In this document: in pieces, positions 10,135 to 14,808 of the stretch | Layout of the letters: every line of letters begins with the position of its first letter | Numbering within the stretch: the stretch's first letter is position 1 | Source: Nitrosopumilaceae archaeon | GTDB lineage: Archaea; Thermoproteota; Nitrososphaeria; Nitrososphaerales; Nitrosopumilaceae | DNA length: 64,000 nucleotides | Assembly: GCA_965214835.1 (NCBI GenBank) | Contig: CBDCCK010000002.1 | Location: 1,088,001 to 1,152,000 of the forward strand | Direction of reading: 5' to 3' | Notes under the pieces: generated by a model | Seen by the model: only the letters and a program-made list of their open reading frames with translations | Databases searched by the model: none | Told to the model about the DNA's origin: nothing | Position numbers and translations under genes: made by a program

Positions 10135-10150
10135 AGACTTTATGCGTAAT
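10135..10150. repeat. Lone TIR of 80-bp MITE family B
   Basis: AGACTTTATGCGTAAT at the abiEi truncation point. Confidence 0.75.
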
Positions 10151-10155
10151 TAGAC

Positions 10156-10247
10156 GTATGTGGTCACGTCCCCTTGTTAGCTAGGCACGAAAATCACAAT
10201 CATGCATCTAATTCGTGCCTGACTGATGGGGGTAGGTGGCCTCGTAC
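10156..10247. mobile_element. 92-bp MITE family E, copy 1
   Basis: Ends GTATGTGGTCAC...GTGGCCTCGTAC; 8-bp TSD AATTAGAC; homolog at 33517-33608. Confidence 0.9.
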
Positions 10248-10291
10248 AATTAGACTGTTGAACACATGATAAAAACGCCCCCGCCGTAGCC

Positions 10292-10418
10292 AGGGTGATG
10301 GATCAACCCCTCGTTATGCATGTGCTTCGCGCACTACCTGTTGAATGGGGATATCCGAGCTGCTGTTCCTGTGCTACGCGCACTGATGGATGAATGCAGC
10401 TTCTGATCTGTCAAACCA
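10292..10418 (+). ncRNA. Putative bridge (seek) RNA of the IS110 element
   Basis: Outer stem 10296-10305/10404-10413 encloses two repeated guide-hairpin-guide arms whose guides match the element junctions. Confidence 0.8.
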
Positions 10419-10445
10419 TATCCAAAAGGAGGTGAAAGAAAAGGA

Positions 10446-11521
10446 TTGAGAAGCATAGGAATAGACATTGGAAAGAGAAAATGCGGTGTGCGTCATCGAC
10501 GCCAAGGGACACGTGCTAGAGGAGGGCTCGTATAACAACACGTACAAGGAGGCATCAAAGCTTGCTGCACGACTGAAAAAAGAGTACAAAAAGTGCTAGG
10601 CCGCGTGCGAGTCAACGGGCAACATGTGGCTAAAGACGTTCAGGGCGTTTGAGGATCAGCATATCCCCATACTGCTTGCAAACACCCTCAAGATGAAGAT
10701 AGTATCAGAGACCAGCGCAAAGACCGACCCGATAGACGCAAGGAAGATAGCCGACACGCTCAGGGCCGGAATGATACCACGATGCTACGTGGCATCAGCA
10801 GAGCTGAGGGATGTCAGGGAGCTGATGAGGTACAGGATACGGATGGTACAGGAGAGGACCGCAGTCATAAACGGGCTGCACAGCTTGGCTTGACAAGTAC
10901 GACATAGCCATAGATGCATCCACGATGTACTCCAAGAAGGCCATACGGAAGATCTCCGATACCAGGCTGAACATGCCAAACGATGACAGGATACTGGCAA
11001 GCTGCACTAGGAGGATTGCATCAGTTACAGAGGAGATAGACCAAGCAGGGGAGGACATAGGAAGACAGGCAGGATCGAACGAGGATGCCAAGCTGCTGTT
11101 GAGCATGACGGGAATAGACACCTTTGCAGCAATGCTGCTGATAGCAGAGATCGGTGACATAACCAGGTTTCCATCGCCGAACCAGCTTGTGTCCTGGGCC
11201 GGCATGTGTCCCCGGGTGTACCAGTCGGGGGAACGCGAGTACCACGGCCACATGAAAAAGGATGCAAACCGCAGGATCAACTGGCTGATGATCCAGATAG
11301 CCAACGTCGCCGTACAGCACGACGACAGGATGAGGGAGTTCTACGAGAGGGTCCGCAAAAGGAACGGCAACAACCACGTCATAGCGATAACGCATGTTGC
11401 AAACAAGATGCTCAGGATAATCTGGCACATGCTGACGACAAAGACTGCGTATTCATCGCGCAATGCTGTCCTGTACGACAAGAAGATCAAGAGGGTGACA
11501 GAACTGGCGGGAACGGCATAG
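10446..11521 (+). pseudogene. IS110-family DEDD recombinase, three lesions
   Basis: IGID, CEST, KTDPIDA and YQSG motifs; GGAGGTG RBS; frameshift near 10485, TAG at 10597-10599, frameshift near 10890. Confidence 0.92.
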
Positions 11522-11755
11522 GATTACCACCTTCCATCCCCCACCCACCCAATGATCCGCCCGCACCTCGGCAGGTGCGACAGGACTGGCTCGTGCGTAT
11601 TGCTAGCGTTAGCTATAAAGCACGGCCCGGCCGACTAGGCACGGATCAGAAGACGAAAGGAACGTCGCCATGTTACTGGCGGGCGTTTTACCATGGATGC
11701 ATAACTCCGACTAGAGCCCAGCCAATTCTTCCGGATCACTACCGGCGCTCGGTTC

Positions 11756-12403
11756 CTACACGGCAGCCACCGCCTCTGCGATCCACTTGTTGTACAGCCA
11801 TATCCTCAACTTTACCTCCTGTACTATATTGGACCACTTGAGGGCCTTTACGTCCTCGCCGAACATGCGCTTTATGGCCGATATCACGATCTCGACGATC
11901 CATCTGATGCCAAAGCCGACCGTGCTCTTCGGGTACCGCAGGTTCTCCTGCCCCTCCTCCTTTGATAGGCTGCCCACCTGCTCCTCGGGACCGCCCCCGA
12001 GCTGCCATCGCACCAGCCGGCCCCACTTGTCGCCGGTGCCCCTGCCCTTTGCATTGCAGCTTGTCAAGAGCCGTATGAGTGGCCTTATGCCTCGCTTGTG
12101 GCACTCGGCTACGTTCTTCCTTGAACCGTATCCGCCGTCTGCAAGCATAATCTTGCCCGGCATGTCCTGGTTCTCGCCGGTGCCGAGCCGCGCCAGCGGC
12201 GATGTCCCGTCTGCAAGCATGTTGGGGATCTTGACTGCGTCCGCGCTGTCGGTGCAGTTTTTCTCCTCTTCCTTGATGTTCCTGGACGCCTCATCAAGCA
12301 ATTCGTAAGAGTTTGCCCCTTGTGCGATACTGCCGGCCGGGGTCTTGATCACCATATTCTTCACACCGCATCCCGGGGCGAGCCAGTTCGTCGTGTATGT
12401 CAT
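11756..12403 (-). pseudogene. IS5-family (IS903-like) transposase, 5'-deleted
   Basis: LADGGYGSRKN and RWIVEIVISAIKRMFGE motifs; N-terminal half missing. Confidence 0.8.
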
Positions 12404-12621: not shown

Positions 12622-14808
12622 CTACCTGTAGTAAGAGGCGACGAGTTTTTCCCCTATCTTGAGATCCTTTTGCTCTCTGACCTTCTTTACGGCCTCTTCA
12701 AAGTTCTTCATTTTTACCTCTGCACCCTTGGTGGTCTTTTCGATTTCCTTGATCTCTGGATGGCTATCGAGGAACTCGTGGATGACCAGTGACACGGCCG
12801 TGTTTGCAATTGCCGCAACGTCCGCACCGCTCAGTCCGTCCGTCATTTCTGCCAGCTTGTCAAAGTCCACATGTTCTTCCTTGCTTGGATCAGTGACTGC
12901 TGGAATCTCCTTTGCATTGATCTCCAGTATCCTCTTCCTGCTTTCCTTGTCTGGCAGCGGAATCTGGATGATCTTATCAAACCTGCCCGGGCGCAAGAGT
13001 GCTGGATCAATCATGTCTGCCCTGTTTGTCGCTGCAAGGACTACGACCCCGTGCATGTTTTCCATCCCGTCCAGCTCCGTCAGTAGCTGGCTTACGACCC
13101 TCTCAGTAACGGCCGTCTCGCCGCCTGCTCCCCTGACTGGCGCAATCGAGTCTATCTCGTCAAAGAATACGACACATGGAGCAGACTGTCTTGCGCGTTT
13201 GAAAATTTCCCTGATTCCCCGCTCTGACTCTCCTACCCACTTTGAGAGCAGTTCAGGGCCTCTTACGGACACAAAGTTTGCCTCGCTTTGCGTGGCCACG
13301 GCCTTTGCCAGCAGGGTCTTGCCTGTCCCGCTTGTCCCGTGCAAAAGGATTCCACGCGGCATCTTGTGTCCCAGCTTGTCGTACAGTCCCGGATACTTCA
13401 TGGGCCACTCGACTGCCTCCTGGAGCTCCTTTTTTACGTCCTCTAATCCGCCGACATCCTCCCACTTTACGTCCGGATTCTCGATGAACACCTCCCTCAT
13501 TCCGGATGGCGTTACCTCGATTATGGCCTTTTGAAAGTCGTCTGAGTTTACAATCAGCTTGTCCAAGGTTTCGGGTGGTATCTTCTCATCCTCGAGGTTT
13601 AGCTCCGGCAGCAGCCTTCTCAGGCATTTCATGGCCGCCTCCTTGCACAGGTACTCCAAATCCGCGCCTACGTATCCGTGGCTGATTGCCGCCACCTTGT
13701 CCATGTTCACCTCGTCTGACAGCGGCATGTTTCTTGTATGGATTGCAAGAATGTCCTTGCGGCCCTTTTTGTCCGGAACCTTGATCTCAATCTCCCTGTC
13801 AAACCTGCCCGGACGCCTTAGTGCGGGATCAATTGCATTTGGCCTGTTTGTCGCCGAGATCACCACGACCTTGCCCCTTGCCTCCAGACCGTCCATCAAG
13901 GATAGCATCTGTGATACGACCCTTCTTTCCACCTCGCCGGTAACCTCCTCCCTTTTTGGCGCAATGGAATCTATCTCGTCTACGAAAATAATCGAAGGCG
14001 CCTTTTCCCTTGCCTCCTTGAAAATCTCCCTCAGTCTTGCCTCGCTCTCTCCGTAGAACTTTGACATGATTTCGGGACCTGATATGCTAATAAAGTGGGC
14101 ATTGCTTTCGTTTGCAACGGCCTTTGCCAGCAGGGTCTTGCCGGTTCCGGGCGGGCCGTACAACAGAACCCCCTTTGGTGCCTCGATTCCAAGCTTTTCA
14201 AATATCTCCGGATGGCGCAGTGGCAGCTCAATCATCTCCCTTACCTTTTTAATTTCATCTGTCAGCCCCCCGATGTCCTCATAGGTGACCTGTGGGACGC
14301 CCCTTAGCGTCTCGCCTTTTTCTGCAATATGGAATACCGTCTTTTGGGTGACTAGGACTGCGTCAGCTGCAGGCGTCACGCCAATGACCTGGAAGGTCAG
14401 CCTTCCGCCAAAGTACGGCACCATGACATTGTCCCCCTTGATCAGGGGAACGCTTTCTAGTGCGTCAGCAAGGTATCTCTCATCTATCGGCGGGATCGCC
14501 TCTAGTGGAGCAACCACTATTTTTTCAGCAGCGACTGCCTTTATTTTTCTAACCGAAATTGTATCCCCTATTGCTATGCCTGAGTTGTTTCTACCTAGTC
14601 CGTCAATCCTAATGATTCCCTTGCCCTCATCTGACGGATATAGCGGAAGGCATTTTGCAACGGTTCTCCTCTTTCCCTTGATCTCAATAACATCGCCTGT
14701 GGAGGCATTTAGGGTATCCATGGAGTCATAATCAATTCTTGCGACCCCCCTGCCTACATCCCTGGTGTATGCCTCTAGGACCTTGAGGGAGAGGGCGTTT
14801 TGACTCAT
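12622..14808 (-). CDS. cdc48: CDC48/VCP-family AAA+ ATPase
   Basis: N domain plus two AAA modules ([16 protein letters not shown]), RPGRFD. Confidence 0.97.

Follow-up and report, generated by a model that had tools for sequence, protein, structure and literature searches.

The window analysed here, a 64,000-nucleotide stretch of contig CBDCCK010000002.1 (positions 1,088,001 to 1,152,000) from a Nitrosopumilaceae archaeon, carries a 1439-bp element of the IS110/IS1111 family at window positions 10261-11699, with a TG core dinucleotide at both junctions (10259-10260 and 11698-11699). Upstream of its recombinase gene, the element very probably encodes a bispecific guide RNA of a DEDD/serine recombinase, in which one arm would read the target DNA and the other the element's own joined ends. 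Judged from its letters, the element appears to be an archaeal member of the IS110/IS1111 superfamily with IS1111-type guide polarity and an upstream RNA, and not an IS621-type element. On the rRNA gene of the same genome (G000), an archaeal small-subunit (SSU) model scored 1452.6 bits against 1089.2 for the bacterial one.

Guide strands of the predicted RNA match target and donor

The predicted RNA is closed by a stem, P1, in which TGATGGATCA (10296-10305) pairs with TGATCTGTCA (10404-10413) around two arms, each built from an outer stem, an internal loop and a hairpin of 4 bp. The element is flanked by CTGT on the left (10255-10258) and CATAAC on the right (11700-11705). In arm 1, the 5' guide GTTATGCA (10313-10320) is the exact reverse complement of TGCATAAC, i.e., of the core and the right flank, and the 3' guide CTGTTG (10338-10343) equals the left flank plus core. 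In arm 2, the 3' guide ATGGATGAA (10386-10394) equals the right-end (RE) tip, the core and the first two bases of the left end (LE). The 5' donor guide of the window copy, TGTTCC, has lost 2 nt behind position 10363; the reading at this place is GCTGTGTTCC in all other copies, whose guide is TGTGTTCC, the reverse complement of GAACACA. When the 186-nt left end was shuffled 200,000 times, both target motifs co-occurred in 14 shuffles and all four motifs in none, the fourth motif being the 6-mer GTGTTC, which is itself absent from the window copy (only TGTTC is kept).

A first-pass annotation of this DNA, drawn from the sequence by itself, had described the stem, the arms, the TG core and the flank strings, all of which we found where it had put them, and its claim that the arm 1 guides match the target is confirmed in the window by both the exact reverse complement and the identity with left flank and core. 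Its claim that the arm 2 guides match the donor holds for the 3' guide, which equals the RE tip at 7/7 positions in 16 of 20 elements; the window's 5' guide needs one correction, the 2-nt deletion. The single core mismatch that it reported in the donor arm stands, and has a parallel in the left donor guide of IS621, which pairs with 8, not 9, positions (PMC11208158, partial text).

Loop strands change together with the flanks

To compare copies, we aligned 26 left-end RNAs (alignment A1, six genomes), 15 of them from G000 and 11 from relatives (G002, G010, G004, G019, G001 and G022) found with P0001, an intact recombinase of this family from G000. The 3' strand of loop 1 reads CCTGTTG in subfamily A, GTAGTTG in B and ACTTCTG in C, and TCATTTG, CCCTTTG, TTTTGTG, GGTCGTG, CAGCTTG or TGGAGTG in other genomes; in every one of these subfamilies and genomes it is identical, or almost so, to the 7 nt in front of its element. 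Over 24 distinct pairs of left guide and left flank, 93 of the 120 non-core positions match, against a mean of 42.5 and a maximum of 75 in shuffles, none of 100,000 being as high. With one flank per distinct guide (18 guides) the count was 67/90 versus 30.2 when shuffled. By element, all five non-core positions agree in nine of the 26, four in ten, three in four and two in three. The first-pass annotation had asked for this covariation check on homologous elements, and had allowed for homologs that keep the same loops at other targets; what we found are loops that differ with the flanks across subfamilies.

The right guide follows the right flank less closely, with 49/102 matching positions versus 30.6 when shuffled (124 of 100,000 shuffles were as high) and agreement at four or more of six positions in 11 of the 20 elements whose right tip was found (B4, M3, M4, M6, F1 and F3 lack one). 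Several of the misfits abut one unrelated repeat (CGCCTAATTCGCC), which suggests later rearrangement or recombination between copies. Left out of the alignment and the flank tests were five more A copies with identical guides, all with the flank TAGCCTGTTG, the C copy 1315098, whose flank fits its guide, and seven fragments with truncated RNAs (c2915643, c504222, c2772767, c1869346, c747681, c225879 and c1892127); among the fragments, the flank of c2772767 fits its guide and that of c504222 does not.

The donor loop varies in a corresponding way. The RE tip is ATGGATG, ATAGATG or ATAGGTG depending on the subfamily, and the 5' strand of loop 2 is the reverse complement of the left tip; in G019, an LE of AAGACA is accompanied by the guide TGTCT, a matched C-to-G change. 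The two bases (AA) that follow the 3' target guide match the element tip, not the target.

A model of the RNA (R1) was then scanned over 151 genomes of the order and matched in 15 of them, G000 included (12 of the 103 high-quality genomes); in G000, modelling of this RNA gave 22 matches, from at least three subfamilies. Among 20 new R1 matches in other genomes, 10 have their own 8-nt guide, at one mismatch or fewer, within 110 nt upstream, as compared with 29 of 380 trials using the guides of other elements (Fisher p 2.2e-6), and in most of these ten the matched stretch lies immediately against an LE-like tip that is 28-41 nt ahead of the RNA. At two loci of G010 (L033 and L055), the first 8 nt of the left tip are missing and the junction lies at an internal TG of the tip, with both target guides fitting the flanks (8/8 left, 5/6 right); these look like products of recombination at the wrong TG, as far as their letters tell.

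The predicted RNA structure is conserved

The minimum free energy fold of the window RNA has the same three-way shape. In alignment A1, 94.4% of 750 pair cells are paired, versus 29.6-52.2% when the partners are slid by 1-3 columns, and both-sided changes occur in 13 of 29 pairs, P1 alone showing compensatory changes in 6 of its 10. None of 500 shuffles reached any of five structure measures, and RNAalifold independently recovered the four arm helices. G-U pairs are frequent and are found on the plus strand only (GU in 25 of 26 rows at one pair; UG in 14 and UA in 11 at another), which fits an RNA of the plus strand. The compact two-arm RNA that the first-pass annotation had estimated at about 125 nt is borne out as a predicted structure, with similar arms, helices covarying in 26 elements and a length of 118 nt.

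Two further blocks, present in an alignment of 16 right ends, are conserved in subfamilies A-E and in miniature elements. Block 2 lies about 25 nt downstream of the TATA-like block 1 and is complementary over 12 bp to the 3' strand of P1, with 172 of 206 cells pairing versus 52-76 of 158-190 when slid and 131 of 20,000 partner shuffles as good; the signal is mostly conservation, not covariation, and block 2 also resembles the 5' strand of P1. These blocks may act as an outward-directed promoter whose transcript would enter the RNA only once the element is circular.

Several observations weigh against a guide RNA, or against parts of that reading. The single-sequence folding z scores are modest (-1.0 for the window RNA and -2.0 for an undeleted copy), and RNAalifold replaces P1 with a short helix (columns 9-12 with 65-68) that closes arm 1 only and cannot be judged because it never varies. 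No credible Rfam family was found in the region. The 26 elements were hand-picked from blast matches, and kin among them are not independent. Right flanks fit at three or fewer of six positions in 9 of 20 elements, and empty targets for three guide pairs were absent at one mismatch or fewer in G010 and G004. Model R1 was not significant on the loci of ISHvo10, the nearest named relative, and of a Haloarcula plasmid (best E 0.064-0.13), so that homology of the RNA with that of ISHvo10 is not shown. Lastly, that the RNA is produced and bound by the protein is argued by homology.

Extent of the element and its insertion site

A blastn search of 10150-11810 against the whole genome delimits a repeated unit at 10251-11705. 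In subfamily A (eight copies including that of the window, about 98% identity), likeness starts at TAGNCTGTTG and stops at CATAAC, and the DNA further out is unrelated; outside the element, these copies have in common only TAGNCTGT-TG and CATAAC. The limits of similarity among the A copies therefore place the element at 10261-11699 and make the conserved flanks its insertion site. All A copies read flank-TG/AACAC...ATGGA-TG/flank, and uninterrupted targets contain a single TG. Terminal inverted repeats are absent, and target duplication is limited to the shared core dinucleotide, as is characteristic of the superfamily. The first-pass annotation had also considered that the ends might map elsewhere; the eight A copies confirm them.

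Positions 10251-10260 are the severed tip of another mobile element, and the uninterrupted form, TAGCCTGTTGCATAAC, is present elsewhere in the genome. The terminal 113 bp of this host insertion sequence (11698-11810) have 22 blastn matches in the genome, and the window copy splits its tip 6-10 bp from the end. Both non-coding ends of the inserted element are long (185 nt on the left, 10261-10445, and 178 nt on the right) and carry subterminal inverted repeats of 12-17 bp, whose sequence varies among subfamilies A, C, D and E yet is always mirrored between the two ends; in subfamily C the repeat is a perfect 17 bp located 8 nt from each tip. We looked for the empty site (10260 joined to 11700) and for the circle junction in short, repeat-broken contigs assembled from four sequencing runs of one study, and no contig spanned either of them. 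One contig joins 10150 to 11698 (side 20); this joint is at odds with the element ends and seems to be an artefact of repeats. The coordinates of all features are collected in Table 1.

Table 1. Features of the window element, its surroundings and its miniature relatives
Feature	Position	Strand	Basis or detail
Target left half (TAGACTGT) and TG core	10251-10260	+	TAGNCTGTTG in all 8 A copies, divergent further left
Left end: tip AACACATG (predicted to be read by the donor arm) and left subterminal inverted repeat TAAAAACGCCCCCGCC (10270-10285)	10261-10295	+	
Predicted bridge/seek RNA gene	10296-10413	+	118 nt, closing helix P1 around two arms
Predicted target-binding arm (arm 1)	10307-10350	+	String match, guide/flank tests, genomic targets
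Predicted donor-binding arm (arm 2)	10357-10402	+	Guides TGTTCC (5') and ATGGATG(AA) (3', 10386-10394)
Recombinase pseudogene	10446-11521	+	TTG start 10446; Shine-Dalgarno-like GGAGGTGA 10428-10435
Right end, including right subterminal repeat GGCGGGCGTTTTA (11678-11690), tip CCATGGA and TG core (11698-11699)	11522-11699	+	
Conserved right-end block 1, TATA-like, CTAGCGTTAGCTATAAAG	11603-11620		Alignment of 16 right ends
Conserved right-end block 2, CTAGGCACGGATCAGAAG	11635-11652		Alignment of 16 right ends
Target right half (CATAAC) and remaining terminal sequence of host insertion sequence	11700-11810	+	
Host insertion sequence DDE transposase open reading frame	11756-12403	-	Pfam DDE_Tnp_1
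Miniature elements	G000:C2 near 639986, 2955990, 3124525, 2139569	+, -, -, +	
Truncated miniature forms	G000:C2 near 10105, 655671	+, -	

Two neighbours of the element deserve mention. To its left, a 92-bp hairpin-forming repeat (window 10156-10247), similar to miniature inverted-repeat transposable elements (MITEs) or repetitive extragenic palindromic (REP) sequences, has 131 blastn matches in the genome, 113 of them of at least 80 nt; an Rfam match to mir-8908 at 10158-10245 (26 bits versus a gathering score of 74) is the hairpin of this repeat and was rejected. To its right, on the minus strand of 12622-14808, a 728-aa open reading frame (ORF) contains two Walker-type AAA modules and, judged by its translation, resembles an archaeal Cdc48/VCP ATPase.

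The recombinase

The recombinase ORF of the window carries three lesions, namely a 2-nt deletion after 10485, a CAG to TAG change at 10597-10599, and an extra G at 10887/10888 that leads into TGA at 10891-10893. All three had been listed by the first-pass annotation and are real, as is its statement that the D-E-D-D motifs and YQSG are kept: the ORF pieces retain IGIDIGK, ACESTG, KTDPIDAR and YQSG. With these lesions and the 2-nt deletion in the donor loop, the window copy is by all appearances inactive. At the lesions private to the window, read contigs carry the letters of other copies (insertions behind 10363 and 10485, and C at 10597).

The only open frame among the copies of this family in G000 belongs to a B copy (G000:C2:513383-514456), which encodes the 358-aa P0001; full-length open copies also exist in G010 and G004. 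P0001 contains the Pfam domains DEDD_Tnp_IS110 (E 7.8e-30) and Transposase_20 (E 2.5e-24), both of which were also found on the window ORF pieces, and carries the motif GLCPRVYQSG. It aligns with IS621 (8wt6, E 2.1e-8) and ISCro4 (9t56), and its D6, E55, D94, D97 and the Ser of YQSG align to D11, E60, D102, D105 and S241 of IS621. The first-pass annotation had suggested repairing the window recombinase for use as a programmable tool. Such a repair is unnecessary because intact recombinases are available at the above B locus and in G010 and G004; nor is the window copy a faithful guide template, because its donor loop carries the deletion.

The extra G at 10887/10888 is common to all eight A copies and to two of the three B copies. 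It converts AGC-CTG-CTT-GAC to AGC-TTG-GCT-TGA-C (window 10885-10893), and a one-base skip at GCU-UGA-C would restore the frame with the length unchanged. Among the carriers of this shared frameshift, the ratio of non-synonymous to synonymous changes (dN/dS) is 0.18-0.34 in both halves of the gene, which is odd for long-dead genes. Possible accounts are +1 recoding, a split protein, gene conversion and trans-mobilisation.

Further IS110-family recombinase genes, 29-32% identical to P0001, lie at G000:C2 311780, 1472973, 1547883, 2027714 and 2873103, and the genome therefore appears to house other families of such elements. A single-protein search for related loci in genome contigs returned only a 21%-identical bacterial match.

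Copies, miniature elements and target sites

Besides the eight A copies, G000 holds three B copies (85-92% identity), three C copies (about 65%) and a dozen shorter left-end matches. We joined the two strands of loop 1 into a predicted empty site and sought it in the genome. Exact loop-predicted targets numbered 4 for A (30 at one mismatch or fewer), 23 for B and 57 for C, where base composition predicts 0.089, 0.073 and 0.024. Each of the 23 B sites coincides with an inverted-repeat tip of a DDE_Tnp_1 insertion sequence, and seven pairs of them are spaced exactly 1364 bp apart; those of A and C fall on the tips of several further repeat families. From these counts, each of the three subfamilies, with its different target loop, seems to home in on the terminal 8-14 bp of other mobile elements or repeats.

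The genome also contains miniature elements of about 370 bp, in which the left end and the RNA are joined straight to the right-end non-coding region and the recombinase gene is absent. One of them (2955990) has a target loop of its own, which fits its left flank at 6/7 and its right flank at 4/6 positions. A repeat family starting (T)CGCCTAATTCGCC adjoins the right ends of copies 1519223, 639986, 3124525 and 2955990 (G000:C2) and is also found downstream of 2928842 and 10105, a placement that is independent of the guide prediction of the element itself; by eye, the first bases of this repeat agree with the guide of copy 2955990 at 7/8 positions.

Alternative readings

An improbable alternative, and the one that survives best, is that the bridge RNA belongs to the IS110 group proper (IS621/ISEc21 type) and not to the IS1111 type. 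A long non-coding region with an RNA upstream of the recombinase is what most IS110-group elements have, and IS621 and ISCro4 are the sole solved relatives that match. However, the top-strand match lies 5', which is the order of IS1111 seekRNAs and the opposite of that in ISEc21 and IS621, subterminal inverted repeats of the above length are present, the GLCPRVYQSG of the intact protein fits the IS1111 motif GL-P----SG, and the nearest named relative, ISHvo10 (30.1% identity), is a diverged relative of IS1111 (PMC11187229, partial text).

Very unlikely, in our estimate, is a cis-acting leader or a DNA site read by a protein, with the guide matches arising as by-products of insertion beside similar sequence. 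P1 ends 15 nt before the ribosome-binding site, so a regulatory role is possible, even alongside a guide role; but in at least 18 guide variants the loop strands vary in step with the flanks and the helices still pair, G-U pairs fit a plus-strand RNA and not duplex DNA, and the miniature copies retain the whole structure without a recombinase gene. Chance matches in the window, which the shortness of the motifs might invite (CTGTTG occurred in 6,450 of 200,000 left-end shuffles), are refuted as far as sequence analysis reaches by the rarity of both target motifs together and by the recurrence of the pattern with different sequences in other subfamilies and genomes, leaving this account a negligible probability.

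Proposed mechanism

In a bispecific guide RNA, the reading that we prefer, the 5' strand of loop 1 would pair to the top strand at the TG core and right flank, and the 3' strand, equal to left flank and core, is complementary to the bottom strand; the strands of loop 2 correspond likewise to the element's right and left tips when joined. Going by its homology with IS621 and with seekRNA elements, the system would use the RNA to bind the DEDD/serine recombinase and bridge the excised circle, with its RE-TG-LE junction, to a target with the same TG core, and strand exchange at the core would insert the element without target duplication.

It is tempting to speculate further, and we regard this as a rather doubtful extension, that a "one recombinase, many guides" economy is combined with an archaeal circle-specific switch. 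The eight frameshifted A copies and at least four miniatures, each with its own bridge RNA and some with their own target loops, would have spread either by being moved in trans or, for the shared +1 G before GCU-UGA-C, through bypass by +1 recoding. For the switch, a transcript from the right end could fold an alternative, longer closing helix; since the TATA-like box lies in the right end, such a transcript would extend into RNA and gene only once the circle has formed.

Discussion

It is well supported that this kind of system was already described in 2024 and that the present element is an archaeal addition to it. To our knowledge, bench tests of bridge and seek RNAs exist for bacterial elements only. 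No described archaeal bridge RNA was found in the full-text literature; archaeal elements and RNAs predicted for them may be listed in Durrant Supplementary Table 5 and Siddiquee Supplementary Fig. 2. Archaeal IS110 recombinases have been discussed, with 662 homologs (bioRxiv 10.1101/2024.06.21.599552, partial text), and IS110-adjacent intergenic regions of bacteria and archaea have been mined at large scale, an effort that probably swept in loci like this one (bioRxiv 10.64898/2026.10.21.760802, partial text). The locus and its kin supply a compact archaeal RNA (about 120 nt) with intact recombinases at hand, together with a natural series of reprogramming, in which one genome holds three target specificities and the six genomes together at least 18 guide variants. 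They suggest that an RNA-guided mode with IS1111-type polarity operates in archaea, and they bear on the kinship proposed between IS110 recombinases and archaeal Nop5 (bioRxiv 10.1101/2024.06.21.599552, partial text).

The first-pass annotation had called the RNA an IS110 bridge RNA, which is upheld insofar as it very probably is a bispecific guide RNA of a DEDD/serine recombinase and needs correction insofar as polarity and repeats are of the IS1111/seekRNA type, not that of IS621. The RNA loops are complementary to target and donor and covary with both, as expected for the superfamily. Of the features that mark the IS110 group proper, the long upstream non-coding region is present, and the guide order and the lack of subterminal repeats (absent or 2-3 bp) are not found. 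Of those that mark IS1111, we find subterminal repeats in the range of 7-17 bp and a 5' top-strand match, and the RNA does not lie downstream of the gene. A reversal of guide order distinguishes IS1111-family from IS110-family seekRNAs (PMC11187229, partial text), and subterminal inverted repeats are a hallmark of IS1111 (PMC11187229, partial text; PMC11208160). It is the reversed guide order, the subterminal repeats and ISHvo10 as nearest named relative that lead us to file the element as having IS1111-type polarity.

The likeness to IS621 extends to a DEDD and Ser recombinase, an RNA in the left end upstream of the gene (PMC11208160; PMC11208158, partial text), and two pseudo-symmetric modules of stem, internal loop and hairpin, for target and donor, whose guides include the core. 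The core-adjacent donor guide is one pair short in both, and the two bases past the 3' target guide that fit the donor here resemble the handshake guides of IS621 (PMC11208158, partial text). In contrast, the core is TG here and CT in IS621, and the guide order within each loop is reversed; in IS621 the left target guide (LTG, A50-U58) lies 5' of the right target guide (RTG, G77-G80), i.e., the bottom-strand guide comes first (PMC11208158, partial text). Here, both arms are joined in a three-way junction by a closing 10-bp helix that shows compensatory changes, in place of the 5' stem-loop and linker of IS621, the RNA has about 120 nt versus 177 nt, subterminal repeats are present, and protein similarity is low (E 2e-8). 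A sigma-70 promoter at the junction, as in IS621, is excluded by the archaeal host.

With the IS1111 seekRNA elements (ISEc11, ISKpn4 and ISPa11), the element shares a top-strand match 5' of the bottom-strand match, subterminal inverted repeats, the transposase motif GL-P----SG and site-specific insertion into repeated DNA (PMC11187229, partial text). It differs in that the RNA lies upstream, where IS1111 RNAs normally lie downstream, and in that both non-coding ends are long. Exceptions to the downstream position are ISMtsp17 (upstream) and ISHvo10 and ISAcp5 (both sides), ISHvo10 having long non-coding regions on both sides of its gene (PMC11187229, partial text). ISHvo10, from Haloferax volcanii pHV4 (NC_013966.1 17092-18090, annotated as 'IS110-like element ISHvo10 family transposase'), is likewise archaeal, and its tblastn match covers 93% of the query. 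By eye, its upstream region contains a GAGCTG...GTGC...GCAC string that resembles our donor arm. A further parallel lies in the choice of target: IS4321 and IS5075, on which Partridge and Hall reportedly wrote in 2003, are said to have subterminal inverted repeats and to insert into the terminal inverted repeats of other transposons, these being bacterial elements with targets in the Tn21 family.

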